Notes: a model not told the origin generated them from the letters alone. Positions 1 to 29,320 are shown, counted from the first letter of the stretch. The stretch: DNA of 64,000 nucleotides from Minisyncoccota bacterium (GCA_040879725.1 JBBDJV010000015.1:32127-96126), one strand, 5' to 3'. Program-made: numbers and translations.

Positions 1-612
1 ACAAGTAGTACGCCAACGCTTCTATTCTCTACAACCGATGAACTTTCCGGCTTGAGTAAGTATGAAATTGTTATTGGTGGAGGAGAAACCATTGAGGTTC
101 CTGCGGAAGATATTACGGATGGTAGGTACGAGATGCCCGAGCAAGATAAGGGTGAGTACGCTGTTACAGTAACTGCATATGATCGCGCGGGAAATACCTC
201 TTCTTCTGAAGTAACTGTTACGGTAGAAGAGGAGCGGCAAGCAAGTTCACGTGGACCGGTTGAGTTTGAAGAAGAAGGTCCCTCTTTCATGGAGCGGTAT
301 GGAAATATAATATTTATACTATTCCTACTTTCTGTAATTATTGCACTTTTCATCACAATTCTATTTATGCGTCAAAAGCATAATGCGGAGAAGCGGCGTG
401 CTATTGAAGAAGCTCGAGAAGCTGAAAATAAAATGGAAATTATCTTCTCAACACTTCGCGATGAGGTAGAGGATCAGGTGCGACAATTGAGCGCAAAGGC
501 GCGCCTCAGTGACGCTGAAAAGCGTGTATTGGTGAAGCTTAGGGAAGCACTCGACATCTCAGAAGAGTTTATCGACAAAGAAATCTCAGATATTGAAAAA
601 GTGTTGAAATAG
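1..612 (+). CDS. 5'-truncated membrane-anchored surface protein, paralog of the 27539..29272 protein, with a C-terminal TM helix and charged coiled-coil tail
   Basis: The frame is open from base 1 with no upstream stop. The block '...YEIVIGGGETIEV...AYDRAGNTSSSEVTVTV' parallels 'RYEIQIGNDEPIV...AFDGADNYLVQTKTVTIV' in the 577-aa protein. A hydrophobic helix (IIFILFLLSVIIALFITILF) is followed by a K/E-rich tail, and both proteins end in 'IEKVLK'. Confidence 0.6.
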   Translation, partial: TSSTPTLLFSTTDELSGLSKYEIVIGGGETIEVPAEDITDGRYEMPEQDKGEYAVTVTAYDRAGNTSSSEVTVTVEEERQASSRGPVEFEEEGPSFMERYGNIIFILFLLSVIIALFITILFMRQKHNAEKRRAIEEAREAENKMEIIFSTLRDEVEDQVRQLSAKARLSDAEKRVLVKLREALDISEEFIDKEISDIEKVLK

Positions 613-695
613 CTATACACAAAAGGGTAAAAACCCTAGTAATAATTTGATATAATTAACATACATATCCAATAGTTGTTGGGGGCTTTTTTACA

Positions 696-3600
696 GTGGA
701 TGTGTTTGAAATGAGATTAATTAACCTGCTAAAAAAAGATATTTGGGTCGTGGGAAGCTTGCTACTAATCGTGTTAGTAGTGAGTGGTAATACCTACCTT
801 AAGAATGTATACGCCGACCCGGTGATTGAGGACAGTGTGTATCTTCTCCCAACAAAAGTTGAGTCTGTTGGTTGGAATAATGTTTCAACTGTTGGAGTGC
901 AGGAAATTTCAAGTGACGGAACTTTGGGCGCATTCAACAAATCAAACTCTGCCTTTGTTATTTTCAAAAACGGAGAGTATGCAAAAGAGGAGGCGGTTAT
1001 ACCCGTGAGAGAAACTGGTGTACCGAAAGCTGAGAAGATAGATGTAGGGGAAACAAAGGAAACAGAAGGGCAAGAGAAGTTGGATAACGAAGAAAGTATA
1101 CAAGATTTTATTGCAACAACTACCGCTACGACCACAACAGATAAGTCTGTTTCTACCAGTACTCCAGTAGCAGAGTCTCTAGAACCAGAAAATGAAGAGC
1201 TCGAAGGTGAAGGTGAAGAGGAACAGTCTACAACAACAGACAGTGTGGAGAATCATAATGTTTCGGAAGAAGTGTCGGAAGAAGTAGATAGTGAAGAAAC
1301 TAGCACTTCTTCTGAGGAAGTAAATCTTGACACGCAACAGGAAATAAATGAAGAAGAAAATAATTCAGCTGTTGAGGAAGAGAGTACTGATTCCGTGGAG
1401 AATGAAAATAATGCGTCTTCTTCCGCGCCGGTAACACGTTTTTTAAATGCGATAAAACGAGCGGTATTTTCGCTTGTACCAAGTTTTGTATTTGCGGATG
1501 AGGTAAGCACAACAACTGAAACAAGTACACCCAAAGTTTCGAGTACTACTGTCCCCGTCGAAGAAGTAAGCTCTACTACATCAGTAACGACTACACCTCA
1601 AATCGTCACTTCAGAGGAAGAAAAACAGGCGACAGAAAAAGAAATAGAGGAAAAGCAGGTGGCGGTGCCAAGTAAACCAAGTGAAGATGAAGTGATTGAT
1701 ACTGAGGCTCCAACACTAACAGTCCTCGGAAATAACCCCGCGGTACTTGCTATTGGAAGTACATACAACGACCTTGGGGTTACGGTTAGCGATAATATAA
1801 ACAATAATCTCGGATTCAAGACATCTGTTGACGGAGTAGAGGTTAGTGTTGTTTCTCTTGATACAAAAAGTGAGGGTGTATACGAAATTACGTATAGCGT
1901 GGTTGATCAGGCAGGTAATACAGGAACTGCAAAACGTATGGTATATGTCGGTATTGAACCGGAAGAAAAGATTGTTTCTGAAGCAGAAAATGAAACCATT
2001 TTAGACACATTCACCTGCGATAATTCAGAAGCATGCACAACCAACGTTCTCGAAGTAAGTGGATTTGGTGTGGGAGGTGAAGTATTCGGGGAAGGCTTGA
2101 TAGACACTGCGCAGTTAAGAATTTCAATGGGTAGTAATATTGCGCACTCCAAAACAAATGAGTTGCCGTTGAAGCTCGAAATAGAATATTTTTATAATGA
2201 ATCATGGTTCAGTGCCGGCTCCATAGTGCTCGATGAGGAAGTTTCAAACGCGATAAATGGAGGATATTTCCTCTATGCTCTTCCGTTCTTTGAGTCATGG
2301 GCTGAGTTTGCAGATTTTAAAGTTCGAATACGTTATGACCATAATAAGGAACTTGAAGGAGGAGTTTACATCGATAGTATTTGGATAGAAGCTTTTTCAG
2401 GTGAAGGAATAAATAAAGAAGAGTTTGGGCTCACGAAAGAAGAAAAGAAAAGAGCTGAGATAGAAAAGGGAATGAAAAAGCCAAAACTTCATTCTGTCAT
2501 CAAAGGTAAACCAGCGTTTGAAATAGACGAAAATCCTGAATTTGAATTTGAGTATGAACTCCAACGCTCAAATATTTCTCGGTTTTTCCGAGGTTTGTTT
2601 AAAGATGATCCCGACTACCGAGTTAGCTCGGTTGAGATTAAAACCGCTTCAGGGCAAGATATTGACCTTCCTATTTCCTTGCGATACGGAGGTGGGGAGC
2701 GGTGGGGCTTTTCAGTAGAAAAAAATAACGAATCACTTCATCCTGGAAAATATGAAGTTTCAATAACCATTCATGAAGGAAGCAAGAGTTTTACGGATTC
2801 CTTTGAATTTTATTGGGGCGTACTAACAGTTAATACAAACAAGTCAATATATTCACCGCAAGAAACAGCATTGTTTTCAATGGCGGCATTGACGGACAAT
2901 GGACATACAATGTGTGACGCTATTCTTCGGTTGGTTGTCGTCGATCCGGATCAGTCAGAAACAGTTGTTCCTGTAGAAAAGTCAGGACTCTGTGATGGAA
3001 ACAATGTTATAGACGTTCCAGATTATTTTGGCGAAATGCAACTTGCGGGTGTTGGAGAATACCAAGTATCGCTTGAACGATATAACGAAGAGGGAGGTCT
3101 TGTTATTCAAACAAACGATATTTTTGAGGTAAGAGACTATGTACCGTTTGATGTGGAGAGAGAAGGTCCTACTCGTATTTATCCACCGGCACCTTATGTT
3201 ATGTCTATCTCTTTTAGAGCAAATGAAGCATTTGATGGAGTAATAACTGAAACAGTACCGAAAGGATTTATTATAGAAGAAAGCGAAGGGGCGAATGTCG
3301 TAGTCAAAGAAGACGTTGTAGAAATTTCTTGGCCGGTTTCAGTTCGTGCGGGTGAACGTATTTTGAAAACATACAGGTTTGATGCTCCTGATATTAGTCC
3401 GTATATATATGAAACCGGCCCACTTGTCTTTAAGAAAGAAATAGCAACAACATCATTTCAAGAAATGAGTACTTCTTCACCTCTGTGTAGCGAAGGATTT
3501 TGCGAAGAAGAAATTACAGAGGAGGTAGTATTTCAAGAAATTCGAACATGGAAAATTGCTTCTGACGCAGTGGGAAGAATGCTTATTTTGTGGGATGGAG

Positions 3601-6600
3601 GAGCTGCACCCGCCGGCTGGGAATGTGTATCATGTACTGGAGGGGATCCATTTTATCAAAGATTCATACGAGGAGGTGCTACCTATGGCGGAACGGGTGG
3701 AAGTGCAACTCACACTCATACTGCTTCAGTGTCAGTTGGGGGCCCTTCTGCAACTACCGGACAAACACCAGGAGGTTCGACTGTTTCAGGCTCAGGGCAT
3801 ACTCATACGTTCACTCCAACTGTAAGTTCCGCAAGCAATTTGCCTGAGTATCGTCAGTTGAGAGTATTACGTTCAACCAGCGCGGGAACTCCAGCAACAC
3901 TTCCTGCGGGAGCAATTGTTTTCTTTACCGATACAGTTCCAACTGAGTGGACTCGATACAGCGCGCAAGATGGACGTTTTGTTCGAGGTGAGAGTGGCGT
4001 TGGGACAACAGGAGGTGCAAACACTCACAGTCATACTATTACTGGTACCACCGGCGCGGCAAGTGGGGACACGTACGGCACTCAAAATGGACAGACGAGA
4101 GCGGATGTCGCTCAAGTAAACCACACGCACAGCGTATCTGGTTCAACCGATTCAGTAAGTAATACTCCTCCATACATAGAAACCATTTTAGGGAAAATTG
4201 ACGCAGACGGTTCTCTTCCAATTGGAATGCTCGCAATGTGGGATGAGGATGTTCCTGTAGGTTGGAATCACAAATCTGAATCAGGGGATCCATTTTTTGA
4301 GCGTTTTATTCTCCCTTCAGCTACATATGGAACAATCGGTGGGAATATAACTCATAGTCATGCTAATCAGAATATCGTGAGTGGAGGTCCTGCTCAAACT
4401 ACAACAGCTCGAGCAGGCGGTAATGTTTCTTCATCGGATCACACACACACTATTAGTTTAACAAGCTATTCGTCTCCGAGTCACCTGCCGCCATATATTA
4501 ATGTTGTGATAGCGGAGTTTTTGGGCACAGATCCCGTTTTCACACAAGCTCAATTCAGATGGTATACGAATGCTAATGTCGAAACTCCAACCGACGCATG
4601 GCCACAAGGAAGCACACTTAACTTAAACGAAAATGAACCAATTACTGCTACTTCTACACCGGTATCACCAGATGACGTTGTGCGTCTTCGTATGGCTGTT
4701 GGGGTAGGTAATGCAACATCTACCGCAGGTTCAGTTAACTTTAAATTGCAGTACGGTCAAGGTTCTGTTTGTAGCGCAGTAACAACATGGAGTGATGTAG
4801 GAGAAATAAGCAGTTCAACGCCGTGGATAGGATATGACAATACGAGTGTTCTGGATGGTGTTGAGTTATCTTCAACAACTCTCTCTCTTTCTAATGTGTT
4901 TGGTTCATATGAAGAGGAAAATAACTCAACCACAACACCAAATGATATAAGTGTTGGCGAGTATGTTGAGTATGATTGGGTTATTCAGCACAATAACGCT
5001 ACGAGTGGTGTTCCGTATTGTTTCAGAATGGTAGAAGGTGACGGTACTCAGTTTTTCACTTATACATCGTATCCTAAATTACAAACTAACTCTGCTCCGA
5101 ATACTCCGACTCTCGATCGTTTGTTTGATAATGAAAAAATTGCTTCAACTTCTCCACATTTTTGGTTTGATGCTGAAGATGATGAAGGTGATGCGTTGTA
5201 CTATCAGATACAAGTTGATGAGGATTTTGCCTTCGGATCTGTACTTATAGATAACAATTCTCAATCTCACGGAGATCAGTTTACAAACCTTATAAATCCT
5301 TCTCAAAAGGAGCCATATACTGAAGGAAATACAGTTCAGTTTATTCCAAGTAGCTCACTCTCAAACAATACAACGTATTGGTGGAGGGTTCGTGCATGGG
5401 ATCCTAATGGGTCTGAAGACTATGGAGAGTGGTCTGAACCACAAAGCTTCACAACCGATTCGAATATTGTTGAGTCTACATGGTTTCAGACAACAGACGA
5501 GCAGTTTGATACCAACACACTTAACGGAGTTAGGACGTTGGGAACAGATGCAGTTGAATTGAATGTTGGCTCAAGTACGGGTTCTATGTACTCAACATTT
5601 ATTGATTTTTCAGATGGTACGTATGGAAATATATGGGAAGAATTTTCATTTAATGACGCCGAAACAACTGGATCAATAAGTTATCAGGTTGAATACCAAA
5701 CAGACGAAGGGGCAGAGTTAGTTCCTGATAGTATTCTTCCTGGGAATAGTACAGGATTCGGTACTTCACCCGTAAATCTTTCAGGGGTAGATCCGGAAGT
5801 GTATGACAATCTTCGACTGGTAGCTAACTTTACCAATAGTGGTGGTAGTCCACAATTGCTTGATTGGACACTCAAATGGGGAACAAAAATCGATACTCCG
5901 ACATTACTTCTTCCTTTTGCAAATGAGCGTTTTCCAACCACCACACCAACATTCACATTCACTACTACAGACCAACAAAGTGACGATCTTCAGTATGAAG
6001 TGTCATGGTCAACCGTGTATGATTTCACATCCTCAACTACTCGAAACTCATCATTGCATGCCGGTTTTGCTAATACTGAAGATAGTGGAGACTCTGATCC
6101 ATTTACATCGGGAGATACGATTAGGTTTACAATACAACCTGCTGATGCTCTAACTGCTTCCACTACCTATTGGTGGAGAGTCCGCGCAAAAGACCCAAGT
6201 GGGGGTAATGCATTTTCTGACTGGTCTGAACCAAGAAGTTTTACCCATAATTATTTGGATGTTGTATCAACGTGGTTCCAAACTACCGATGAGCAATTTA
6301 ATACGAACATTCTTTCCGGAACACGAAGTACGGGTAGTGACTCTCTTACTGTCGCAACAACTTCGAACGAAGCTATGATTGTATACGGGGAAGGAGCAGT
6401 AACTACTCCACAGTTTCGAATATGGAACGGTTCGTCATGGTCGAGTGAAAGCAGTGCGCTTAGCGTAGACTCTCAAATAAATTGGGTGGCAGTAAAAGAA
6501 GCCCCTACAAGAGAAGAGTATGTTCTCGGAACACTTGGATTAGATAGTGATGTTAATGTTCAGGTATATAGTGAGGGTATTTGGGATAATCTCCTCGAAG

Positions 6601-9600
6601 TTACTGCTAGTATTAGCAATGCAGATAAACGCGGTTTTGATATTACGTATGAATCAATTTCAGGTGATGCTATGGTTGTAAGTTGTGATGGCGATTCAAA
6701 TCCTACGTACTACACATGGAATGGTTCGTCATGGTCATCACCGGGTACTATAACAACTTCCACAGGAAGTAGCTGTGAGTGGATTCGACTTGCGTCTAAT
6801 CCTGTGTCGGACGAAATTATTATGGTTACTCTGCCGGGTGGAGGAGGTCAATATGAAGCTCAAGTATGGAATGGTTCAGCGTGGGGAAATGCTGTGGTGT
6901 GGGGAGGCATGAGTGAAGCACATGAAGGAATTGGTGTTGCGTATCAACCAAACGGTGCCCTTGCTGTTGTTACTGTAAACAATGATGGTTCAACACCTCC
7001 AAACCGTATGTCATCTCGTACATGGAATGGTTCATTTTGGAGTGGTACTACCGATACAAACGTTGGATACTTTGAACAGGGAACGCTGGTCGCTGATGAT
7101 GGAACAAATAACATGAACCTCTGTTTTGTAAATGACGCTACAACGGTTCAAGGGTTACCGTGGACAGGCACAGCGTGGGGAACGCAAACACAGCTTGATG
7201 CAACCGCCCACGCGAAGAATGATCGCCCGGTTGACTGTGTATACGAAACTACAAGCGGAAGAGATGGAAATGTTTTGACTGCATACAGTGACACAACATC
7301 AGCTCGGTACAGTGTGCTTAGCGGGGGAACCTGGTCTGCTGAAGCAAGTATCAGCACTATCAGTCGTTCCGCAACGGTTCAGCTTGAACGTGTTGGTGAT
7401 GGACTTATTTTGGGAACCTTCTTCGATCATGTAAATGAGCGATACGACTTCTCTTATTGGAATGGTAGTGCATGGTCAACTGCACAAACGCTCGAAAATA
7501 CTCCGTCGGTAAGTTCTGCTCCATTTAAAGAACCGTTTATGATGGCTGCTCGCGGACCGGCAACTAGTGGTACGGTAGCGGTATCTCCGGGTATTGTATT
7601 TTCAGATGGGACCGGTCCGTATTGGGGTGAATTGTCATTTAGTAATACGACTCCTGGAGCAAGTGGGGTGCTTTATCAAGTACAGTACGCAACTGCTACA
7701 ACATATGAGCTTATTCCGGACGTAGACCTTACTGGCAACTCAACAGGCTTTACTACATCACCAGTTGATCTTACCGGTTTGGATATTACTACGTATGATA
7801 CTATTCGAGTCAGAGCGACACTTACCTGTGATGGTTCTGACTGTCCAACTCTAGATGATTGGACGGTGACGTGGGCTGAAGGCGCTACAGTGTCGGGTAC
7901 CATTGCAGAACATGATGAGACAACTGCTGTAACAGAAGGGACGGTAGCTGTTGCGGTAAATGGAGTATTGCAAACAGGTAAAACGGGTGAAATCCAAGGT
8001 GACGGAACATGGAGTATAACCAATGTTACTGCATTTGTTGATGATATTATTACCGTATTTGTAAGTGGCGCAACAAGTGAGAATAAGGCTGTCGCTGTTA
8101 CAAAGTATGATGGGGTGGGAGATATTACAGGCATTGAATTACATGAGCGACATCTTACATTTGGATCAGATGATACCTCGCCTGTTATTACAAACAGCGA
8201 TTTGGGACTTTTCGATATTGCTGTGGGAGGAAGTGATGTGTTCTTTGATGTGGACGCATCGAATAACTTAGTTGCAACTTCAACAGGAGGTGGTTTTGAC
8301 GATGTTGTTGTGTACGTAACTTCTGGAACAACATATAGGCCTGACAGTACATCAAGTGGAAATGTCTCCACTCACGATATTGCTATTTTAGGAACGATAA
8401 TGGCAGACGGAAACACAATTTCACTTTCAGGTTCCTGGAGAAATAGTAGTACTTTTAGTGAGGGTACGAGTCACGTTGTCTTTACCGCTCTAAGTGGTTC
8501 GGAAAGTATAGATTCTACAGGGGCGAGTGCGAGCAATTTTTATCGAGTTACCTTCGGACAAACTTCTGGTACTGCAACATGGTTACTCTCCACACCTCTT
8601 GTGGTAACAAACAACACTGCTGTTAATTACGGAACGTTATCTCCAGGCTCACAAACTCTTTCTTTGGGAGGTAATCTTGCTATTGGTTCAAGTGGTCTGT
8701 TTACTAAAGGTACCGCCACAACAACATTTAACGGAACGGGCAGTAGTGTTTGGTCTGATGCGTCTTCCTTAAAGCAGGATATGGGAATTGTTGTTATTGA
8801 TGGAACAAGTAAAACCGTTACTCTTGGTTCAAATGTTCAAGCAACTGATATTGTTATAGGAGCTAATGATACGTTTGATATAACAACAGGAAACTACAGC
8901 ATAGGTGTAAATGGTTCATGGACTAACAATAATACTTTTCTTTCACGACAGGGAGAGGTAAACTTTACCGGTTCGTCATTTGGAGTTTCTATTTTACCTG
9001 GCTCATCATCTTTTTATAACCTTTCATTTGGTGGAAGCGGCTCGTGGACTTTTGGTTCTACTAATATCACCGTAGTAAATGACTTTAGTATTTCAAATGG
9101 TTTTGTTACGCTTCCGAGCGGAACCACTACCATTAGTGGTTCGTTTCTTGCGACTGCGAGCGGGTCTTTTGCAGGGAATACCGGAACTGTCCTCTTTACC
9201 GGTTCATCTGGATCGGAAAGTATTAGTCAAAATAATTCAAGTTTTTATAATCTTGTACTCAACGGAAGTGGCTCTTGGTCATTTAGTGAGCAAAATGCAA
9301 CCACAACAAACAACGTTCAAATCCTTAGCGGTACGCTAACCGCTCCGTCTGGTGCATTAGCTATTGGAGGTTCATTTACAAATGCTGGAACATTTACTCA
9401 CAATAGTGGCGCACTTCGTTTTTACTCAAGTGGTGATAGTAAGGTAGTACAACCAGGTCTATCTTCCATAAATGACATTATTTTTGATGGATCAGGAGGC
9501 TGGGTTCTTTCTCCATCAGCAAATATAACTGTTTCCGGTGATGTGAGTATTATTTCAGGAACAGCAACATCAACAGCAGAAACACTTTCTGTTGGAGGTT

Positions 9601-17660: not shown

Positions 17661-17803
17661 CTATAGTAGAGGAGGTATTGACGATTACAGTCAGTGGTAT
17701 ACACTAGATATATTATGAATAGAGTAGGAAACATATTCTTTTTCTTTGCCTTTAGCCAGCACTCTGGTTGAGGTTTTGCTTGTTTCTGGAAATATTCTTG
17801 AAA

Positions 17804-17836
17804 AAAGCCAGCTCTCAACCAGAGCTGGCTTTTTAG
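17804..17836 (+). terminator. rho-independent terminator after the giant gene
   Basis: A perfect 9-bp stem 'gccagctct'/'agagctggc' with loop 'caacc', followed by TTTTT. Confidence 0.7.
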
Positions 17837-18096
17837 TTCTTTACAACAAAATACAAATTATGCACGCTATGACTACGCAAAGAAAACACAAACGAACACC
17901 GGGTGCTACATTCACGCTCAAAACTGATTTTGTTATTTCCTTCCACGAAGGTCGGAAAAAAATCACACGCACGTATTCCACCGGAACAAAAGGGAAGTTG
18001 GTAGCAACATCTTTTTCCCAAGGGTCTTGGTTCTTTGTTCTCATGATGCCCGACTGAAACGTCATTAACGTCAATGAGTGTAAGCTCATATAAACC

Positions 18097-18131
18097 ACAC
18101 CCCACTTAGACACGTTCAAGTGGGGTTTTTA
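18097..18131 (+). terminator. second rho-independent terminator
   Basis: Stem 'ccccactt'/'aagtgggg' with loop 'agacacgttc', followed by TTTTT. Confidence 0.65.
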
Positions 18132-18249
18132 ATTAATGGCAAACAATACGTGGTTTTAAAATTTTCTTTATTCCTATAGAAATTTTTATCTACAACAGAG
18201 ACACAACTCTCACTACTCGCATGATATACTTTTAACGAGACTTGCCTCT

Positions 18250-21083: not shown

Positions 21084-22292
21084 ATGCAACTCATTGACCT
21101 CGCAAAACTTTCAACTCGTATGTTTAAAACCAACCCGGCTCGTACATGGCTGACTATTTTAGGTATGGGTGTGGGTACTGGAGCGGTGGTGGTGCTGGTG
21201 GGATTGGGTTTTGGTTTGCAGGGAGTATTGCTCGAGCAGATTGTGTTCGGAGAAACACTGCTTTCGCTTAACGTTTCAAGCCCTACCTCTGATACGGTTA
21301 AGTTAAACGATGAAGCGATTGAAGAATTTTTTGCAATAGAAAATGTTCTCGATGTTTCTCCGAGAGCGAGTTTTCCCGCGTCGGTTACGTACGGTGATCT
21401 AACGGGGAATATTTTCTTAGAGGGGTTAAACCCCGCGTATGTTCGGTATACTGGTACACAAGCAGAAGCAGGAGAAGTGTTTACGGAAGAAACAAGAGCA
21501 GAAGATCAGAAAAGTGTTCTTCTCACACAGTCAGTACTAAAGCTTTTTGGTGTCGAAACACCAGAGGAAATTATCGGAGAGTCCGTAACGTTTAGAATTT
21601 TTCTTGAAACTGGCGTGGGTGAGGTTGCCAGAGAGGTTATACTTCGCGATAAATATATTGTAAAAGGAGTAACTAACGATGCAACGTCGCTTTCGGCGCA
21701 AATGCTTATGGAAGAGCTCGAACAGCATGTTGGAATTGAGCTTTATGATCGTGCCCAAGTGCGCGTTTCAAAAACTGACTTTCTCACCCCTACTACGGAC
21801 GCACTTATTGAAATGGGTTTTAATGTAACTGCGCTATCCAAGACAGTGGAACAGGCAACAAAGATTTTCCAAGGAGTGCAAGCCGTTCTCGCATCATTTG
21901 GCGGTATAGCGCTCATTGTGTCTGCAATCGGAATGTTTAACACCATGACCGTTACGCTCCTTGAGAGAACGGGAGAAATTGGAATTATGCGTACCATCGG
22001 TGCGTCGTCTCTTGATATTAAGATTTTATTCGTTTCGGAAGCGGTTATTGTAGGTTTTTTGGGAGGGCTTATGGGTATAGCCATAGGTATGGGTATTGGG
22101 ATTACGTTAAATACAGGTATAAATATTCTAGCAAGCCAGTTCGGTGGTGTTGCAGTGAAGCTTTTTCGGTTTCCGTTTTGGTTCCTCGCATTTATTTCTA
22201 CATTCTCAGGAATTGTTGGTTTTATGACGGGTATTTTCCCAGCACGGCGGGCGGCAGGACTTAATCCACTCGATGCTATTCGTTACAAGTAA
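21084..22292 (+). CDS. ABC transporter permease, FtsX/MacB type (4 TM, large extracytoplasmic domain between TM1 and TM2)
   Basis: TM1 ARTWLTILGMGVGTGAVVVLVGLGFG is followed by a ~220-aa loop and a C-terminal FtsX core 'IALIVSAIGMFNTMTVTLLERTGEIGIMRTIGAS'. It starts 1 nt after the ATPase stop. Confidence 0.85.
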   Translation: MQLIDLAKLSTRMFKTNPARTWLTILGMGVGTGAVVVLVGLGFGLQGVLLEQIVFGETLLSLNVSSPTSDTVKLNDEAIEEFFAIENVLDVSPRASFPASVTYGDLTGNIFLEGLNPAYVRYTGTQAEAGEVFTEETRAEDQKSVLLTQSVLKLFGVETPEEIIGESVTFRIFLETGVGEVAREVILRDKYIVKGVTNDATSLSAQMLMEELEQHVGIELYDRAQVRVSKTDFLTPTTDALIEMGFNVTALSKTVEQATKIFQGVQAVLASFGGIALIVSAIGMFNTMTVTLLERTGEIGIMRTIGASSLDIKILFVSEAVIVGFLGGLMGIAIGMGIGITLNTGINILASQFGGVAVKLFRFPFWFLAFISTFSGIVGFMTGIFPARRAAGLNPLDAIRYK

Positions 22293-22396
22293 ACGTTGTA
22301 CACAGGTTGTTTGCTTTTAAGAGACAAAAGTTATGTATAATAAGAGCAAGACGCATTTAGTGTCATTTTCTTTACAATAAACATCGTGCGATATAT

Positions 22397-24229
22397 ATGC
22401 ATATAATTAAAAGATTTAACAAAGCACAAGCTACTGCAGGAAAGGTAACTATCGTTACTGTTCTCGCGGGGATAATGGTTTTTGCCGCCTTTTATGTGCT
22501 TAACCTCGACGAACACACCGTTCCCAAGGTTGAAGCTCAAAGTAATGCAACTACTTCCGTGGAAGTCCTTAACACTCCACCTGATTGGACTGTTGATGCG
22601 GAAGAAGGTGCGGAATCATCTATCACAAATCCTACTAACTCAGGGGATGCTGTTTCGTGGGTAGCAACAGGAACCGACGCTAACGGAGAAGATTATTACC
22701 TTCTTATCTGTAATGCGTCTTCTACACCGATTGCTAATTCAAACGCTGCTCCAGAATGTACTGGTGGAACTCAGTGGGCAGTTTCAACCTCTACCGCAAG
22801 TGGTCAGCCGGCAAGTGTCTCAACTACCACAGCAGAAGCATGGGATGAGAGCAATGACTGGTATGCGTATATTTGTGATGATAATACAAGTACACCACGG
22901 TGTAATGCTGCACATCGACAAGGAAGTGGCTCGACAGCATCTCCGTTTTTAGTAAACCACAGACCAACTTTTTCACTGTTTAGCGATAGTTCACCAACTC
23001 TTCCTGGTGCTGTAATTACATGGCACTCAACATCAACTGACTCTGACATCGAGGGTGGAGCTGACACTCTTATACTTCATGTATGTAAAGAAGCAGACTT
23101 TACCGGCACAGAATGTGGTGCGGGAGGTTTCTGGGCTTCAACAACACTTACCTATACAGCAGACACTGCCGCAAGTACAACGCTTCCAGTTCCATTGCAA
23201 GACGATGATTATGAAGCATACGGGTATGTTGTTGACAACCACGGTCACGCAGCAACAGGTGGGCAGCAAGGAGCCGACTCTGTTCTAACTGTCGCAAATG
23301 CTACCCCTACGGTTAGCTCGGGTACTATCAATATTAACGGATTAGCTGACCTTGAGCTTGCGATTGCGGGAGGAGAAACTGAAAACTTCACACTTTCATT
23401 TGCTGTAAGTGATGGAAATAGCTGTGTTGCGAATGCATCTACTACGTATGAAGTGGCAACTGTTTCTGCAGACTTCTATCGCTCAGGAGTTACAGCTGCG
23501 AGCTGTAATTCTGCAGGCGATTATGATCCGAATAACTGCTATACTGGAACAGTAGCTACAACAACATGGAATTTGGTTTGTACACAAGATAATACATCAT
23601 GTGGAGGTCCTGATGACTCAACAGTTACGTGGAGCTGTACGTTCCCTCTATGGTTCCTCGCTGATGCAACTGATGCAGGAAGTTTCTATGCGGCGGAAGA
23701 TTGGAGAGCTACAGTAACTGCTACAGATGATAATTCTTCCGCAAGTACTCCAACAGAAAGTGCTGGTGGACAAGATGTCCTCCAACTTATGTCTTTCGTT
23801 CTTAATACTTCTGATATTCCATACGGAGCCCTAGAGCCAGGTCAGACAACAGAGGATTTGATCGCAACAACAACGATTGCTGCAAATGGTAATGTTGGCC
23901 TTGACCAAAACCTCTATGGAGAACATATGTGTCCAGGGTATAGTGGTCAAGGAACATGTCCATTCCAAAGTCCAGCTACCTCTTCAATCCATGCTGATAA
24001 CCAAAAATTCGGAACAACAACCACTGGATATGTAGATAATGATGCGTATGCTCTGGCTACAACAACTCAAGAGCTTGAGCTAAACCTTGCTAAAACAATA
24101 AGTACATCAACACTCTCTGAGGCAGATATTTACTGGGGTATTGGTATCCCTGGTACTATTACTTTCGCTGGTGAATATTTCGGAGAAAATACATTCCAAA
24201 TGGTTACTTCGGAATCTGCTGAGTGGTAA
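22397..24229 (+). CDS. secreted/N-terminally anchored protein whose C-terminal half is homologous to the giant protein's C-terminal domain
   Basis: N-terminal hydrophobic segment VTIVTVLAGIMVFAAFYVL. The N-terminal half contains two internal Cys-containing repeats. The C-terminal half aligns to 16870..17657. Confidence 0.75.
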   Translation: MHIIKRFNKAQATAGKVTIVTVLAGIMVFAAFYVLNLDEHTVPKVEAQSNATTSVEVLNTPPDWTVDAEEGAESSITNPTNSGDAVSWVATGTDANGEDYYLLICNASSTPIANSNAAPECTGGTQWAVSTSTASGQPASVSTTTAEAWDESNDWYAYICDDNTSTPRCNAAHRQGSGSTASPFLVNHRPTFSLFSDSSPTLPGAVITWHSTSTDSDIEGGADTLILHVCKEADFTGTECGAGGFWASTTLTYTADTAASTTLPVPLQDDDYEAYGYVVDNHGHAATGGQQGADSVLTVANATPTVSSGTININGLADLELAIAGGETENFTLSFAVSDGNSCVANASTTYEVATVSADFYRSGVTAASCNSAGDYDPNNCYTGTVATTTWNLVCTQDNTSCGGPDDSTVTWSCTFPLWFLADATDAGSFYAAEDWRATVTATDDNSSASTPTESAGGQDVLQLMSFVLNTSDIPYGALEPGQTTEDLIATTTIAANGNVGLDQNLYGEHMCPGYSGQGTCPFQSPATSSIHADNQKFGTTTTGYVDNDAYALATTTQELELNLAKTISTSTLSEADIYWGIGIPGTITFAGEYFGENTFQMVTSESAEW

Positions 24230-24269
24230 AATAGACTTTGCTCTCCACAGAATATCTCCTTATTTTTCT

Positions 24270-24297
24270 TGCGAAATCTAGCATAAGCGGTATGATA
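24270..24297 (+). promoter_or_regulatory. candidate sigma70-type promoter
   Basis: TTGCGA, a 16-nt spacer, then TATGAT. Confidence 0.35.
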
Positions 24298-24340
24298 GGT
24301 ATACACAGGCATAGTCTGGCTTGTTTGTACTTGGCCTATA

Positions 24341-25276
24341 ATGAAAATTTCTAAAAAACTGGCATATACTCTTGTTCTTGTAATTTTTCTGTGTGCACCG
24401 TTTTTCCTGCATGCGAGTTTTGGTATTACGCCACCATACGTAAAGAATACAAGCTTAACTCGTAACTCTGAGTTTACACAGAAAATTACGTTAGTGCGCG
24501 GTGATCCAGTTTCTGACCTGAAGGCGGAGCTCACTATGGATGTTCCTGGAGCAAATGACTGGATCACCATAGATAAAGGTATGACCTTTTTGTTACCTAA
24601 AGGGGAGCAGAAGGTACCTATGTATGTTACTGTAAAAATTCCCGATGGAGCTCGTTTTCAAAAATATAAAGGTAACATCCGTATACGAACATCTCCGGCA
24701 GACGGGGAGAGAAGTGGTGGTGGAGCCGTGTCCATTGCTCTCGGTGCACAAATCGATGTTGACTTTGATGTTATAGATAGAAAAATTTTTGACTTTAGAG
24801 TAAGAAAGATAGCAATTGAAGATGTTGCTGAGGGGCACTCACTCGCATGGTTATATTTTCCCGGGAAAATTAATTTCAAAATCTCACTTGAAAATACCGG
24901 TAACATAGATGTCGCACCTTCGAAAGTAGTCTTTGATATTTTTGATTTTAACGGGGAGACATTACTCGAAACTACAGAAAGTAAAAATAAAATAGAAAAG
25001 GTTAAGCCGTTTGAAACCAAAGAGGTTGTAGCAGAACTTCCTACTTCACTTCCAGCAGGAAGCTATTTGGTACGGTATGTAATTTATAACAATGATGAAG
25101 TGAAGCAAGAAGGGGAGCTCAATCTCTCAATAGTACCTTACGGCACACTCGCGCAAGCTGGATATGGTTTCAGTGGTCTGTCTATCCCGCATAAACTTAC
25201 GATTATTGTCCCTATAGCTGTTCTTCTTTTGTTTGTATTTTTGGTATTTAAAAAGTCTAGGAAAAGAAAAAGATAA
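24341..25276 (+). CDS. surface protein with a signal peptide, two beta-sandwich-like domains, and a C-terminal TM plus polybasic tail
   Basis: N-terminal signal-like LAYTLVLVIFLCAPFFLHA. The C-terminal anchor reads LTIIVPIAVLLLFVFLVF followed by KKSRKRKR. Confidence 0.6.
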   Translation: MKISKKLAYTLVLVIFLCAPFFLHASFGITPPYVKNTSLTRNSEFTQKITLVRGDPVSDLKAELTMDVPGANDWITIDKGMTFLLPKGEQKVPMYVTVKIPDGARFQKYKGNIRIRTSPADGERSGGGAVSIALGAQIDVDFDVIDRKIFDFRVRKIAIEDVAEGHSLAWLYFPGKINFKISLENTGNIDVAPSKVVFDIFDFNGETLLETTESKNKIEKVKPFETKEVVAELPTSLPAGSYLVRYVIYNNDEVKQEGELNLSIVPYGTLAQAGYGFSGLSIPHKLTIIVPIAVLLLFVFLVFKKSRKRKR

Positions 25277-25282
25277 TTAACG

Positions 25283-26416
25283 ATGAATAGAATATTCTTT
25301 TCTATTACTTTGTTTTGTATCTCATTTGGGCTACTATACCCGTTTTCTTTGAGTGCGATAACGATAGGAGTTGCCTCCACAACAATCAGAGTTTCTATTT
25401 GTGGCGACGGAATAGTTAATCAAGGGGAAGACTGTGATCCTCCCGGATCAGGAAATTACAGTACGAGTATTGCTGGCAGGGAGTGTAACTCGCTGTGTGA
25501 GTGGGCGCCGTACTGTGGAGATAGTGTCGTGCAAACAAGTTTCGGAGAAGAATGTGATGACGGAAATAATACCTCAAAAGATTTTTGTTCCGCTGAGTGT
25601 CTTGCTGAGGAAATTGTATTAAATACTGGTGGTGGAGGAGGAGGGGGAGGTGCGGGTATTTTCCCAGGAGGAAGTTTTGCTCCACCTTCAAACTCAGACG
25701 TTACTATAACTGGTAAAGCGTATCCAAACTCCACTGTTACTATCCTTAAAGACGGAGAGGTTATTGGTGAGGTAGCTACAGATAGTAATGCAGATTTTTT
25801 ATTCACAACAAGTGGTATCACTCCGGGAACCGCAACATTCGGTTTTTGGGCAGAAGATAGCAAGGGGCTACGTTCTATTTCCTATACTACGACCTTTGAG
25901 GTTATCCAAAGTGCAGTAACAACTGTTTCCGGAGTATATCTTCCACCAACAATACGAGTTGAACCTCGTTCCCTTGATCGAGGAGACACACTTACTATTG
26001 ATGGAACTTCAGTTCCAGATGCTGTTATTACTGCCCAAATAAGTGGAGATGATGAGTACTTGGAAACAGTAACTGCGGAAACAGACGGTTCTTGGGAGCT
26101 TTTGTTTGATACATCACCGATACCAAACGATTCTTATACTGCTCGTGCGTCTTTCAGACGAAGTGACACAAACGGATTAACAATTGAAAGTGGTTTTGGG
26201 CAAGCACTTTCATTTTTTGTGGGAGTCGATGCGGTACCCGATACCGGACCCTCAGACCTAAACCTTGATGGGAGAATAAATATTGTGGACTTTTCCATTA
26301 TGCTTTTTCATTGGGGAACAGACGGAGCCGGTTCAAGCCCATCGGCTGACATAAATGGAGATGGAAGAGTAAACTTAACAGACTTTTCCATTATGATTTT
26401 CAACTGGACGGGATAG
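25283..26416 (+). CDS. secreted protein with a cysteine-rich repeat, an Ig-like region and a C-terminal dockerin
   Basis: Signal peptide. 'CGDGIVNQGEDCDPPG' and 'CGDSVVQTSFGEECDDGNNTSKDFCSAEC' are Myxococcus-type Cys-rich repeats. Then a poly-Gly linker. The C-terminus has two dockerin Ca-loops, 'DLNLDGRINIVDFSIMLFHW' and 'DINGDGRVNLTDFSIMIFNW'. Confidence 0.65.
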   Translation: MNRIFFSITLFCISFGLLYPFSLSAITIGVASTTIRVSICGDGIVNQGEDCDPPGSGNYSTSIAGRECNSLCEWAPYCGDSVVQTSFGEECDDGNNTSKDFCSAECLAEEIVLNTGGGGGGGGAGIFPGGSFAPPSNSDVTITGKAYPNSTVTILKDGEVIGEVATDSNADFLFTTSGITPGTATFGFWAEDSKGLRSISYTTTFEVIQSAVTTVSGVYLPPTIRVEPRSLDRGDTLTIDGTSVPDAVITAQISGDDEYLETVTAETDGSWELLFDTSPIPNDSYTARASFRRSDTNGLTIESGFGQALSFFVGVDAVPDTGPSDLNLDGRINIVDFSIMLFHWGTDGAGSSPSADINGDGRVNLTDFSIMIFNWTG

Positions 26417-26471
26417 GTGTGCATAATCTTTTATAACGAAGCGTGTACCACATGCTATACTCAATAGTACA

Positions 26472-27536
26472 ATGGTGATGAATTGGAAAACTTTTTTGGT
26501 GCGAGTGATAAGTACTTCTGTATTACTTTTTTTTATTTTGCCTGGGTTGGTTGATGCATCTCTTTTATACCTTGATCCTACCGGAGCTGAGTATAGAAAA
26601 GGAAGTACGTTTGTAGTGACCGTTCGGCTTGATCCTGAAGGAGAGTGTGTAAATGCTGTTAATGCTGTTATTACCTACCCAACAGAGGAGCTTACTGCTT
26701 TTGATGTATCACGAAGTGGTTCTATTCTTTCGCTCTGGGTTGAAGAGCCATATATAGATGAAGTAAATGGAAAGATTTATTTCCAGGGAGGTATTCCAAA
26801 TGGATACTGTGGGAGAATAGACGGCGATCCAGGCAATACGAATATTATTGGTAGAATTGCTTTCAGGAAACCCGGTGGTCTGAGTGTTGGGGGAGCGAGT
26901 GAGGGAGGAGTGCTTGAGGTAGCTTTTGATGAAGAAGAAAGTGAAGCGCTTGCAAATGATGGCCGAGGTACACCAACAGACCTTACATTTCAGAATGGAA
27001 CATACATAATTTCTCCTGACGCTCCTCTAACTGATGATAGCGTGTGGTTTAACGCACTTCGAGATGACAGAATTCCTCCAGAGAGCTTCACTGTCACCCT
27101 GCACACAAAAGATGATATACAGAAAGGAAAGTACTTTGTTGTTTTCTCTACAACCGATAAACAGAGTGGCTTGGATGAATATCAAATAATGGAGGAATCG
27201 ATAGATAATCCGGGTTTTGTTGAATGGAAAAAAAATACCAGAGTACTTTGGGAGCAGGCAAAAAGCCCGTATGTTTTGAAAGACCAAAATTTGAATAGCG
27301 TTATACGAGTGAAAGCAATAGACAAAGCAGGAAATGAACGTATTGCAGCATATGTCCCAGGGGAAGATGAACGACCGGCAACACAGACGTCAGGTAGTAG
27401 CATGATGACTTACGCGGGTGGAGTGTTGTTGGTACTCGTACTAATATTGATTGGTTTTATTATTAGAAAAAGGGTAAATAGGAGAAAAACATCAGTCGGT
27501 GTAGATACTCCGGGTTCAATTAATCAAGAAAAGTAA
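26472..27536 (+). CDS. membrane-anchored surface protein with an N-terminal cohesin-like domain (paralog of 27539..29272)
   Basis: Signal peptide. 'GSTFVVTVRLD...VNAVNAVITYPTEELTAFDVSRSGSI...GKIYFQGG' resembles a cohesin beta-sandwich. The C-terminal TM is GVLLVLVLILIGFII followed by RKRVNRRK. Confidence 0.5.
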   Translation: MVMNWKTFLVRVISTSVLLFFILPGLVDASLLYLDPTGAEYRKGSTFVVTVRLDPEGECVNAVNAVITYPTEELTAFDVSRSGSILSLWVEEPYIDEVNGKIYFQGGIPNGYCGRIDGDPGNTNIIGRIAFRKPGGLSVGGASEGGVLEVAFDEEESEALANDGRGTPTDLTFQNGTYIISPDAPLTDDSVWFNALRDDRIPPESFTVTLHTKDDIQKGKYFVVFSTTDKQSGLDEYQIMEESIDNPGFVEWKKNTRVLWEQAKSPYVLKDQNLNSVIRVKAIDKAGNERIAAYVPGEDERPATQTSGSSMMTYAGGVLLVLVLILIGFIIRKRVNRRKTSVGVDTPGSINQEK

Positions 27537-27538
27537 GT

Positions 27539-29272
27539 ATGAAAAAAGGTTTATTTGTGTTTATCGGTATCTGTGCTGTTTTCGTAAGTGTGCTTACCTT
27601 TCTTCCCTCGGTTGCTTACGCAGCGGGGTCACTCGTGCTTTCTCCTCCAACCGGTGTGTATACTGCTGGGAGCACGTTTACCGTTCGGGTACTTGTAAAT
27701 ACAGATGGACAAGCAATAAATGCAGCGGAAGGTGAGATTACTTTCAATCCAAGCGAGCTGTCTGTTGTGGCTGTGTCACAAGCCGGATCTATTTTTAATC
27801 TTTGGACGGTGGAGCCGACATATTCAAATGGAGCAGGAACAATTTCATTTGGTGGTGGAAGTCCGAAGGGGTACACCGGTAGCTCAGGAACGGTTATTAC
27901 TATTACGTTCCGCGCCCTGAAAGAAACCAGTGCCACAGTACGATTTTCTTCCGGGTTGATACTTGCTGCGGACGGAAAGGGTACTAATATTATTGGAGCT
28001 CTTTCTTCTGGTTCTTACACACTACAGTCAAGCAAGCAAACACCTCCTCCTGAAATTGTAGTACCTGATAATTCTCCAAGTGCTCCAGCGGTTGTTTCTT
28101 CGACACATCCGAATGAAACAAAGTGGTATCCACTTACAGACGCAAAACTTTCTTGGGAGGTACCCGACAGTGTGAGTGCGGTGCGATTACTTATCGACCA
28201 AACAGAGTATACAATTCCTACCGTATTTTACGGTGAGCCGATAAGTGAAAAGTTGATTGAAGACCTTGATAACGGCGAGTGGTATTTCCATGCACAGTTT
28301 AGGAACGCAGACGGATGGGGCAAGGTGCGACACTTTAGAATAGGAGTTGATACTGAGTTGCCGTCTTCTTTTGAAATACGCGAACCTGAAGACCGAGATC
28401 CAACCAGTCCAAACACACAACTTATTTTTGACGCTACCGATGAAGTTTCGGGTATTGCGCGATACGAAATCCAGATTGGGAATGATGAGCCGATTGTATG
28501 GATAGATACTGAAGGAGATGGTTTATATACACTTCCAACACTTCCAGCAGGAAAACATACTCTTATTGTAAAGGCATTTGATGGTGCTGATAACTATCTT
28601 GTGCAAACCAAGACTGTTACGATTGTCGCACTCGGAGCTCCTACGTTTACCGAGTATCCTGACACTATCTCAACCGATACTATTTTAGTTATGCGTGGTA
28701 CCGCTATTCCAAACAGTACTGTTACCGTGTGGACCAGACGAGGAGGAGAAGAGCCGGTTCCTTACACACTGACATCTGATGCTGATGGAGGATTTACCTT
28801 TATCTCTGATAATGAGCTCGCAAAAGGAGTTCATACATTTTGGGCAACAGTAACCGACGAGCGGGGAGCTCAGAGCGAGCCAAGTGCTGAGGTTAAGGTA
28901 GTGGTCAGAGACCCGGGGTATGTCAGAATCGGATCATTTGCTCTCAGTATTCTTTCACTTATAGTTCCATTGGTTGGTGTTATTGCGCTTCTGGTTTTCC
29001 TCTTCTGGTATACTCGCCATAAAATTATTTTGTTACGAAAGCGATTAAATAAAGAAGTGTTTGAAGCGGAAGCCGCATTACATAAAGCGTTTATCACTTT
29101 GCAGAAGGGAGCAGAGAAACAAGTGAAGGCTCTTGAGGCAGTTTCTGAGAAGCGTAAGCTTACTGCAGAGGAAAAAGATATTCTCGCAAACCTTAAAAAG
29201 AATCTGACTCAAGCGGAAAAGGCGGTCGCCAAAGAGATTGAAGATATTGAAAAGGTACTGAAGAGTAATTAA
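27539..29272 (+). CDS. membrane-anchored surface protein: cohesin-like N-terminal domain, Ig-like domains, TM helix and cytoplasmic coiled-coil tail
   Basis: 'GSTFTVRVLVNTDGQAINAAEGEITFNPSELSVVAVSQAGSIFNLW...ISFGGG' is paralogous to the N-terminus of 26472..27536. The TM is IVPLVGVIALLVFLFWY and the protein ends '...IEDIEKVLKSN', like the fragment at 1..612. Confidence 0.6.
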   Translation: MKKGLFVFIGICAVFVSVLTFLPSVAYAAGSLVLSPPTGVYTAGSTFTVRVLVNTDGQAINAAEGEITFNPSELSVVAVSQAGSIFNLWTVEPTYSNGAGTISFGGGSPKGYTGSSGTVITITFRALKETSATVRFSSGLILAADGKGTNIIGALSSGSYTLQSSKQTPPPEIVVPDNSPSAPAVVSSTHPNETKWYPLTDAKLSWEVPDSVSAVRLLIDQTEYTIPTVFYGEPISEKLIEDLDNGEWYFHAQFRNADGWGKVRHFRIGVDTELPSSFEIREPEDRDPTSPNTQLIFDATDEVSGIARYEIQIGNDEPIVWIDTEGDGLYTLPTLPAGKHTLIVKAFDGADNYLVQTKTVTIVALGAPTFTEYPDTISTDTILVMRGTAIPNSTVTVWTRRGGEEPVPYTLTSDADGGFTFISDNELAKGVHTFWATVTDERGAQSEPSAEVKVVVRDPGYVRIGSFALSILSLIVPLVGVIALLVFLFWYTRHKIILLRKRLNKEVFEAEAALHKAFITLQKGAEKQVKALEAVSEKRKLTAEEKDILANLKKNLTQAEKAVAKEIEDIEKVLKSN

Positions 29273-29274
29273 CA

Positions 29275-29303
29275 AAAATACCCCTTTAAAGGGGTATTTT
29301 TGT
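29275..29303 (+). terminator. rho-independent terminator
   Basis: 'aaaaataccccttt aaa ggggtattttt': a 10-bp stem followed by a T-run. Confidence 0.75.
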
Positions 29304-29320
29304 GTTATCCACGGGAAAAT

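Follow-up and report, generated by a model that had tools for sequence, protein, structure and literature searches.

A conserved ten-gene locus of Paceibacteria that may encode a modular surface complex with WxL-like and cohesin-dockerin anchoring

Do ten neighboring genes for surface proteins, which together take up about 29 kb in a genome of a kind that is usually smaller than 1 Mb, build one apparatus or several, and what would such an apparatus do? The question is raised by a 64,000-nucleotide stretch of DNA from a Minisyncoccota bacterium (GCA_040879725.1 JBBDJV010000015.1:32127-96126), which as a whole we call the window. Open reading frame (ORF) calling placed ten genes in a row, all on the + strand, across positions 1-29272, just as an initial annotation of this DNA had described them, and we name them g0 to g9 in order. 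That annotation had proposed a single surface assembly system rather than a set of unrelated genes, with a dedicated ATP-binding cassette (ABC) transporter at its center. The idea of a single system is well supported, since the domain assignments and the gene order, on which it had been staked beforehand, both held. The place given to the transporter did not fare as well, as described below.

Our preferred reading, to which we assign a probability of about 0.55, is that the locus encodes one modular surface complex of Paceibacteria, in which WxL-like and cohesin-dockerin anchoring are combined with an accessory type VII ABC mechanotransducer. The core consists of a large and a small protein that share a C-terminal domain (CTD), an anchor protein with two immunoglobulin-like (Ig) domains, a dockerin protein, and anchored cohesin proteins. 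In most genomes an ABC module is inserted between the two CTD genes.

Few uncultured bacteria are as diverse and abundant as Paceibacteria (Parcubacteria/OD1), whose contact with partners has so far been described in terms of type IV pili and of "large adhesin-like proteins" that are not further specified (PMC4508563, PMC11809585). Such adhesin-like proteins are present in OD1 (PMC4508563). Patescibacteria have proteins of more than 4,000 aa with FhaB or DUF2341 that lack conserved full-length homologs (PMC11809585), dockerin and fibronectin type III (FN3) proteins are essential in Saccharibacteria (PMC10633639), and very large proteins are targeted to the surface in Absconditicoccaceae (PMC13059738). 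Our literature searches found no description of the present locus. What it offers is a conserved list of about ten proteins.

Gene order across Paceibacteria genomes

The first gene, g0 (1-612), is the 3′ part of a gene cut at the window edge. It is followed by the giant gene g1 (696-17660), which encodes 5,654 aa from a GTG start or 5,649 aa from the ATG at 711, and then by a protein with four FN3 domains, g2 (18250-19755), an ABC ATPase, g3 (19757-21082), and a permease, g4 (21084-22292). The 610-aa small CTD protein g5 (22397-24229) and the 311-aa two-Ig protein g6 (24341-25276) come next, and the dockerin protein g7 (25283-26416), the cohesin-like anchored protein g8 (26472-27536), and the cohesin anchored protein g9 (27539-29272) complete the run. 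The gaps between these genes measure 1-112 nt, with the sole exception of 590 nt after g1.

To see how widely this arrangement occurs, we scanned genomes, one per species, with exact peptide patterns. The scan gave at least 101 matches, a lower bound since only exact patterns were used, and 80 loci were compared (locus handles beginning with L refer to these). They carry the labels Kaiser-, Nomura-, Lloyd-, or Sungbacteria, Paceibacteria, Parcubacteria, or generic Patescibacteria. Taking g5 as the reference point and counting only loci with enough DNA on the relevant side, we found the FtsX permease gene directly upstream in 64 of 71 loci. Also upstream were the ABC gene in 56 of 63, the FN3 gene in 51 of 56, and the C-terminus of a giant protein in 39 of 46. 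Downstream, g6 was present in 75 of 76 loci, g7 in 60 of 62, g8 in 44 of 45, and g9 in 36 of 39. Two independent look-ups also returned the gene order of the window. The same order thus recurs in about 80 genomes of Kaiser-, Nomura-, Lloyd-, and Sungbacteria-type Paceibacteria, and the conserved neighborhood expected from the initial annotation is real.

Reduced versions of the locus indicate which parts belong together. The L084/L085 locus lacks the FN3, ABC, and FtsX genes and encodes, in order, a 1,092-aa CTD protein, a 321-aa protein made of a transmembrane (TM) or signal segment and a CTD, a g6 homolog, a Cys-rich dockerin protein, and two cohesin-like TM proteins. It lies between the gene for ArgRS and an IleRS-RecO pair resembling that of the window. 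In L082/L083, a 561-aa g5 homolog (hhalign E value, 6e-91) is found directly upstream of a g6 homolog bearing an SH3 domain, and none of the remaining locus genes is nearby. Since the pair persists in both of these versions, g5-g6 is, by sequence comparison, the invariant unit, and the cohesin-dockerin genes form the next layer. The ABC module is missing beside the same core in L084/L085, in L082/L083, and in 7 of 71 other loci. We accordingly see it less as the center of the system than as an accessory at a fixed insertion site in a large subclade, and the central position that the initial annotation had given to the transporter is not sustained.

Could the row of genes instead be two or three independent systems that have stayed side by side through vertical inheritance, namely, a cohesin-dockerin pair for surface display, a giant adhesin, and a MacAB-like efflux or resistance pump that uses the FN3 protein as its adaptor? 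Some MacB-type pumps of Gram-positive bacteria are resistance pumps. The genes from g5 to g9 do occur without the upstream module in 7 of the 71 loci, the core stands without ABC genes in L084/L085, and g5-g6 stand alone in L082/L083. In the window, a terminator-like hairpin on the + strand (17802-17834), with a 14-bp stem followed by a T run, lies 140 nt 3′ of g1 and parts it from the remaining genes, which suggests that g1 and the downstream genes are separate transcription units. However, wherever the ABC module is present, it sits at the same spot between the CTD genes, as seen in 64 of 71 genomes with protein identities of just 40-60%. The CTD moreover ties together the genes on either side of the module, and dockerin and cohesin genes come after g6 in large and minimal versions alike. 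We therefore consider independent systems distinctly improbable and a single modular complex the better account of the gene order.

The 590-nt gap that holds this hairpin (17660-18250) contains a second one with a T run (18099-18126), and both are strong. Searches of the gap against Rfam returned sub-threshold matches only, of leader or terminator type, and all small ORFs within it are implausible. A relative that is 74% identical (L002) has just 40 nt at this site; the gap is therefore specific to the genome of the window.

Most related loci also hold genes that the window lacks. These encode a secreted protein of about 381 aa between g7 and g8, a helical TM protein of about 221 aa, a TM protein of about 525 aa with an acidic region and a propeller-like part, and a cohesin-like protein of about 250 aa with a C-terminal dockerin (e.g., L038:19196-19948 and in L005, L009, L015, L020, L044, and L048). 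Three locus-bearing contigs (L056, L076, and L077) are labelled Azotimanducaceae, Ectothiorhodospiraceae, and "uncultured Gammaproteobacteria" and are probably mis-binned Paceibacteria contigs; many other loci carry the generic label "uncultured Candidatus Saccharibacteria." The g5 protein of the window is 100% identical to an NCBI protein from a metagenome-assembled genome of a "Candidatus Paceibacterota bacterium."

The shared C-terminal domain and its putative two-Ig partner

The giant protein g1 starts with a signal peptide, is rich in Ser, Thr, and Gly, and is strongly acidic, with a net charge of about -455. Comparison of the protein with itself produced no self-hits and hence no detectable internal sequence repeats. 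Pfam covers about 6% of it with three domain types, Bact_surface_Ig-like (aa 341-418), two copies of Ig_Rha78A_N (aa ~1480-1587), and DUF2341 (PF10102; window 15558-15785, + strand; aa 4955-5030). The last of these is clear, with an E value of 7e-17 and 62 bits against a cut-off of 23.4. The Pfam "Collar" domain named in the initial annotation could not be found in g1, either in the whole protein or when it was searched in 1,100-aa pieces.

At its C-terminus, g1 carries the Cys-rich CTD of about 250 aa (16938-17657, + strand), which is homologous to the C-terminal domain of g5 (nt 23414-24226, + strand). In a blastp comparison, aa 5439-5654 of g1 are 30% identical to aa 357-606 of g5 (E value, 2e-15), confirming the domain that the initial annotation had seen in both proteins. 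We built a hidden Markov model (HMM) of the CTD from both families and ran it on all ORFs of the 80 loci and the window. It matched solely orthologs of g1 and g5, and all significant matches were at the extreme C-terminus; g1 itself scored 1.6e-86 at aa 5415-5665 of the reading frame. There are 39 columns kept in both families, among them YRSG, NNCY, ADPTD, I-YG-L, GN, WG[IL]x[VI]P, GxNxF, and several Cys. Sequence and profile searches found no relative of the CTD in Pfam or the PDB.

In length, the large protein is variable. Orthologs of 5,587 and 6,296 aa occupy the same gene position in the two independent look-ups, and across genomes the large CTD protein ranges from 864 to 6,296 aa. In L026, L040, and L076 the "giant" has just 864-1,516 aa, and a g9-like gene lies upstream, like g0 in the window. 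A search for homologs with a 2,000-aa piece (aa 301-2300), in a protein collection that seems short of the longest proteins, found the N-terminal half of g1 to be 43-48% identical to parts of proteins of 2,000-3,400 aa. Among distant relatives of the same piece (P0137, P0139, and P0141; 2,000-2,750 aa), some carry Peptidase_M23 together with DUF2341 or LamG-type domains. Peptidase_M23, of the peptidoglycan endopeptidase type, was not detected in g1 of the window.

The small CTD protein g5 consists of an N-terminal hydrophobic helix, about four Ig/PKD-like domains, and the CTD. An AlphaFold2 model of it (mean predicted local distance difference test [pLDDT] score, 72) shows the N-terminal helix and a string of Ig/PKD/FN3-like sandwiches, for which fold matches were generic only. 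Just past the likely signal cleavage site, at aa 51-62 (window 22547-22582), g5 has an invariant ATTSVxVLNTPP, a stretch that is unstructured in the model. The 321-aa minimal protein of L084 (L084:9021-9986) has a similar sequence, TATTTVTVGNAAP, ahead of its CTD. One idea is that this stretch is a candidate donor strand for g6, whose domains are PapD-like.

The g6 protein begins with a signal peptide, continues with two PapD-like/ASH Ig domains (aa 27-119 and 135-265), and ends in a TM helix and a basic tail. Its AlphaFold2 model, computed from a 30-sequence alignment (pLDDT, 83.8), shows the same plan, with a beta sandwich for each of the two domains between the signal helix and the C-terminal TM helix. 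PDB searches by sequence and profile gave nothing useful for either g5 or g6. When the model was compared by fold with Foldseek, however, the matches were PapD-like chaperones and WxLIP proteins, including 9i25_C, "WxLIP ... bound to long WxL," with an E value of 1.4e-7. In WxLIP, DUF916 and DUF3324 follow a signal peptide and precede a C-terminal TM helix. A minimal WxL cluster comprises WxLIP and two WxL proteins, a small one and a large one that ends in the WxL domain; a strand of WxLIP is predicted to insert into the WxL domain (PMC10599100, PMC9772566). The arrangement of such a cluster (Csc) is found here: two secreted proteins, one small and one large, share a C-terminal domain, and the gene beside them encodes two Ig domains between a signal peptide and a TM helix. 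In fold, too, the g6 model resembles WxLIP. We take g6 to be WxLIP-like in architecture, in gene order, and, as far as the model goes and not exclusively, in fold. By analogy with WxLIP and WxL proteins, the constant pairing of g6 with CTD proteins, which the initial annotation had not noted, is likely the key relation in the locus. The g6 protein is predicted to bind the CTDs of both g5 and g1 and to hold the two proteins at the membrane or wall, probably by beta-strand insertion like that between WxLIP and WxL domains.

Several results weigh against our reading. The TM-scores between g6 and WxLIP are low, 0.29-0.36, because the orientation of the domains differs, and many unrelated tandem PapD-like proteins equal or beat the score of WxLIP against g6. 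No Pfam WxL match was found in 13 CTD sequences at E values up to 10, and no DUF916 or DUF3324 match in 30 members of the g6 family at E values up to 0.1. We therefore draw the WxL parallel at the level of architecture and fold and do not claim homology. The second half of the CTD is poorly modelled (pLDDT, about 50). The role that we propose below for the ABC module comes solely from its position and from knowledge of type VII ABC systems. Finally, the high sequence identity across genomes is unusual for a host-specific adhesin, and a conserved envelope machine accounts for it no less well.

This last point leads to a serious rival. The locus could encode a structural envelope layer needed by most cells, an S-layer-like coat or its anchoring, in which the CTD proteins form the coat and the anchored proteins tie it to the membrane. 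For surface proteins, conservation across order-level lineages is very high. Of the locus proteins, g4 is the best conserved: its identity in syntenic loci is 54-84% (mostly about 60%), compared with 47-78% (mostly 50-60%) for g6 and 35-74% for g5. The families are also very large: clustered at 90% identity, g5 has more than 800 homologs, about 50% identical over the full length, and g6 has more than 1,500, which form 1,192 clusters at 50% identity. There is a weak match of g6 to an NCBIfam "putative S-layer protein" model, and relatives of g6 have CARDB-type matches. Bacterial SH3 domains, a type that binds the cell wall, on distant g6 relatives would suit a coat as well. On the other side, giant nonrepetitive proteins of 5-6,000 aa are atypical as lattice formers, the size range of 864-6,296 aa fits a variable outward-facing part, and the S-layer match, at 19.8 bits, is far under the cut-off of 110. 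Given the high conservation, we take the coat seriously, and still judge it unlikely next to the reading of a modular complex with an outward-facing large protein.

The SH3 domains deserve a note of their own. They are of the SH3_3 type and stand at the end, after extra hydrophobic segments, of distant g6 relatives of 467-505 aa (P0331, P0358, P0360, P0368, P0382, P0398, and the protein at L082:10001-11476). This hints at cell wall binding within the two-Ig family.

Cohesin-dockerin proteins, export, and the ABC module

The second layer of the complex consists of proteins with cohesins and a dockerin. The secreted g7 protein is composed of Cys-rich DUF4215/myxo_disulf repeats (DUF4215, 2e-6), a Gly linker, Big_6 Ig domains (8e-9), and a C-terminal type I dockerin (Dockerin_1, PF00404; nt 26252-26398, + strand; E value, 7e-9; 36.1 bits against a cut-off of 22.9). 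Its two Ca-loop repeats are both canonical; the one at aa 325 reads DLNLDGRINIVD and the one at aa 356 reads DINGDGRVNLTD. On the anchored side, g9 carries a signal peptide, a cohesin (PF00963; nt 27662-27973, + strand; aa 42-145), Ig-like domains (Big_13, 8e-12), a TM helix (aa 471-489), and a cytoplasmic coiled-coil tail of about 88 aa. The cohesin match has an E value of 1.9e-9 and 38.3 bits against a cut-off of 24.1. The g8 protein has a signal peptide, a cohesin-like N-terminal domain (nt ~26559-27011), an Ig-like domain, a TM segment (aa 313-331), and a basic tail. It has no Pfam Cohesin match itself. Nine of 17 orthologs do, the best at 4e-7, and a profile of the family matched cohesins alone in the PDB, weakly, with E values of 0.02-0.5.

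The two cohesin-like anchored paralogs of the initial annotation are thus established for g9, which exceeds the Pfam cut-off, and in their paralogy (the N-terminal cohesin regions of g8 and g9 are 33% identical by blastp; E value, 5e-17), and g8 has a candidate cohesin domain that is suggested by its orthologs. The g0 fragment, which had been taken for a truncated paralog, has a Big_13 match (1.8e-6), a TM helix at aa 103-121, and a cytoplasmic coiled-coil tail. It is indeed a paralog of the C-terminal half of g9, with 35% identity over 142 aa (E value, 4e-13) and 40% over 75 aa by blastp, and it is the edge of the window that cuts it short, not the genome. We predict that g7 docks on the cohesins of g8 and g9 with Ca2+. 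In none of the ten proteins did we find a catalytic (carbohydrate-active) domain or a carbohydrate-binding module (CBM), and each anchor has one cohesin, which separates this set from a cellulosome. Sortase anchoring was ruled out, as no locus protein combines an LPXTG-like motif with a TM segment and a basic tail. The sole LPXTG-like motif in the last 60 residues of any of them is VPDTG at aa 318 of g7, just before the dockerin and with no TM segment after it.

How do these proteins reach the surface? A scan for TM segments found an N-terminal hydrophobic signal or anchor of the Sec type in every locus protein except g3, which has neither a signal peptide nor a TM segment. The statement of the initial annotation that each protein has a signal peptide or an anchor consequently applies to all but this ATPase. 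All components other than g3 would then be exported by Sec. Lipoprotein substrates of a Lol-like system were ruled out, as the signal peptides have no lipobox Cys.

The ABC module comprises g2, g3, and g4, and its domain assignments (four FN3, ABC ATPase, and MacB_PCD/FtsX) hold in HMM tests, as do Dockerin_1 and DUF2341. The g3 protein is an ABC ATPase (ABC_tran, 1e-30) with Walker A, LSGGQ, Walker B, and H-loop all intact. It has in addition a helical, family-specific C-terminal extension of 215 aa (nt 20432-21079), whose length is conserved in 55 orthologs (most about 440 aa in total) and for which profile searches found no relative in Pfam or the PDB. We dropped a helix-hairpin-helix interpretation of two GGxG motifs in this extension, as no profile match supports it. 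The permease g4 (MacB_PCD, 7e-15; FtsX, 5e-15) has four TM segments, with a MacB-like core domain on the extracytoplasmic side between the first two. Together, g3 and g4 show the marks of a type VII ABC system: a four-TM FtsX permease, an ectodomain between TM1 and TM2, and intact ATPase motifs.

They do not fall into any named member of that class. The nearest NCBIfam models are DarD, MacB, LolD/LolCE, and FtsE/FtsX, all far under their equivalog cut-offs. For MacB, g3 scored 177 bits and g4 scored 94 against 966; the values for the others were 170 against 265 (FtsE), 172 against 308 (LolD), 27-42 against 225-255 (FtsX), and 58 against 362 (LolCE). MacAB-TolC is a poor fit as well, since the nucleotide-binding domain and the permease are encoded by separate genes here and the upstream partner is the four-FN3 protein. 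This partner, g2, is anchored by an N-terminal TM segment (aa 8-26), and its stop codon adjoins the start codon of g3. Pfam recognized Pur_ac_phosph_N (4e-23) and fn3 (2e-16), and an ortholog-derived profile resolved four domains of FN3/Pur_ac_phosph_N type (aa 40-127, 184-277, 281-370, and 395-474, each with an E value of 1e-22 or lower); 50 of 56 g2 orthologs also have four. We consider g2 a candidate extracytoplasmic adaptor of the ABC system. Judged by these sequence features, g2-g4 is a new type VII ABC subfamily that is partnered by an FN3 protein and bears an ATPase extension. Patescibacteria are not known to have an outer membrane.

One might suppose that this transporter is dedicated to exporting the CTD proteins and that the CTD serves as their secretion signal, on the model of type I or type IX secretion. 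Among Gram-negative bacteria, giant adhesins often come with an ABC exporter of their own, and here the CTD is found at the extreme C-terminus of exactly two proteins, whose genes flank the transporter genes. Yet both CTD proteins have N-terminal Sec-type hydrophobic signals, and CTD proteins with g6 occur without adjacent ABC genes. The permease is of the MacB/FtsX fold, a class that acts from the outer face and is not known to thread proteins across the membrane. RTX repeats are missing; we counted zero RTX motifs in the locus proteins. Export of the CTD proteins by g3-g4 is thus very unlikely in our view, and the dedicated MacB-type transporter with shared-domain substrates is not supported as first proposed: the exported proteins carry their own Sec-type signals, and the module is dispensable. 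An adhesin secreted by a type I system (LapA/SiiE type) was ruled out on the N-terminal signal, the zero RTX count, and the FtsX-type permease.

As part of a modular surface complex, the ABC pair may instead act mechanically. ATP hydrolysis in the cytoplasm would move the extracytoplasmic domain, in a mechanotransmission at the outer face similar to that of MacB and FtsEX, without translocating any of the locus proteins. Together with the four-FN3 protein in the adaptor position, the pair might assemble, extend, or remodel the complex through the wall. Acidic and nonrepetitive, g1 would be the long outward-facing fiber that touches a partner cell or a surface. Attachment to a host or partner cell, as suggested in the initial annotation, is a plausible function.

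A bolder version of this reading can be put forward. The locus might encode an ATP-powered surface organelle specific to Paceibacteria, in which the type VII ABC mechanotransducer, with its cytoplasmic extension and a stalk of four FN3 domains, drives a fiber of 5-6,000 aa, with a WxL-like strand-insertion anchor and a cohesin-dockerin scaffold to hold it, for host contact, predation, or motility. We regard this as speculative and improbable. If it were true, the pair of CTD and two-Ig protein would represent an ancient anchoring principle common to these bacteria and the WxL systems of Firmicutes, by descent or by convergence.

Genomic surroundings and known systems

The 3′ flank of the locus is of a housekeeping kind, with genes for a LexA-like protein, DinB, VKOR, NusG, L11, ThyA, tRNA synthetases, RecA, and FtsK, and the GC content and skew of the locus match those of the rest of the window. 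A mobile or phage origin was ruled out on the uniform GC content and skew, the housekeeping flanks, and inheritance across the class. Over about the first 58 kb, the + strand shows a strongly positive GC skew, which drops to about zero where the genes turn to the - strand (RecA and FtsK). Within the 64-kb window, we found no tRNA gene and no Rfam family at gathering score.

Directly 3′ of the locus (29359-31148), the reduced genome has an SOS-type pair of genes, one for a LexA-like Peptidase_S24 protein and one for a DinB/IMS polymerase, with a 4-nt overlap. Next to the Cys-rich locus, at 31180-33005, are the genes for a SIMPL/DUF541 protein and for a 328-aa VKOR-family protein in which a further membrane region of about 190 aa accompanies the VKOR domain; this VKOR could make the disulfides of the CTD and DUF4215 cysteines. 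In L002, ORFs matching this flank by size (213, 407, 329, and 270 aa) are found 3′ of the g9 ortholog. At 43078-46584, a 1,168-aa IleRS-like class I tRNA synthetase has a histidine phosphatase, His_Phos_1 (E value, 1e-33), inserted at aa 511-672, where it splits the two halves of the catalytic domain. The 1,154-aa IleRS-like ortholog of L084/L085 has the insert too, which is therefore a lineage trait and not an assembly error. Outside the locus, between RecO and a class II tRNA synthetase (47197-49140), there is a further surface-type protein of 647 aa with DUF11.

What does the locus add to what is known? It places a WxL-like arrangement of small, large, and two-Ig proteins in a phylum other than Firmicutes, in which more than 91% of WxL proteins are found (PMC9772566). 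It is a further noncellulosomal case of cohesin and dockerin, without a carbohydrate-active enzyme. In practice, the CTD and two-Ig families can be used as metagenome markers for the apparatus and as targets for labelling in cryo-electron tomography of enrichment cultures.

The closest parallel is WxL/Csc of Lactobacillales and Listeria. Both have small and large secreted proteins with one C-terminal domain in common; in both, the large protein has long adhesin-like N-terminal parts and the small one may be the domain alone, as in the 321-aa protein of L084, and the protein of the next gene has two Ig-like domains flanked by a signal peptide and a C-terminal TM helix. Unlike the WxL domain, the CTD is Cys-rich and larger (about 250 aa). 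The present locus has no LPXTG protein, its host belongs to Patescibacteria, and it adds cohesin-dockerin proteins and usually a type VII ABC module. The chaperones of chaperone-usher systems (PapD, FimC, and CsuC), which g6 resembles in fold, differ more: there is no usher or pilin-type subunit here and presumably no outer membrane, and g6 is membrane anchored and unrelated in sequence.

With cellulosomes and noncellulosomal cohesin-dockerin systems, the locus shares a secreted protein bearing a type I dockerin in which the Ca-binding repeat is present twice, cohesins on cell-anchored proteins, and their encoding in the same operon, and the 250-aa cohesin plus dockerin protein of related loci resembles an adaptor scaffoldin. 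In contrast to cellulosomes, glycoside hydrolases, CBMs, and other catalytic domains are missing, the anchors have a single cohesin and a TM helix in place of SLH domains or a sortase, and the cohesins are divergent, with E values of about 1e-9 or visible via orthologs only.

Among type VII ABC systems (MacAB-TolC, FtsEX, LolCDE, and the MacAB-like pumps of Gram-positive bacteria), the module is familiar in having an ATPase and a four-TM FtsX permease with a MacB-type domain, here from separate genes, and, directly upstream in the adaptor position, a gene for an N-terminally anchored extracytoplasmic protein. It departs from them in that this partner is a four-FN3 protein and not of the HlyD/MFP, EnvC, or PcsB type and in the conserved 215-aa C-terminal extension of the ATPase. 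The giant proteins of other ultrasmall or predatory bacteria (Patescibacteria and Omnitrophota) are comparable in size class, DUF2341, and surface targeting. Those described earlier (PMC11809585, bioRxiv 10.1101/2023.11.21.568195) are, however, single proteins that lack conserved full-length homologs, whereas the giant considered here has conserved orthologs, a defined set of partners, and multigene synteny. Taken together, these comparisons describe a locus that is WxL/Csc-like in its logic and cohesin-dockerin in its parts and that is joined to a new type VII ABC subfamily.

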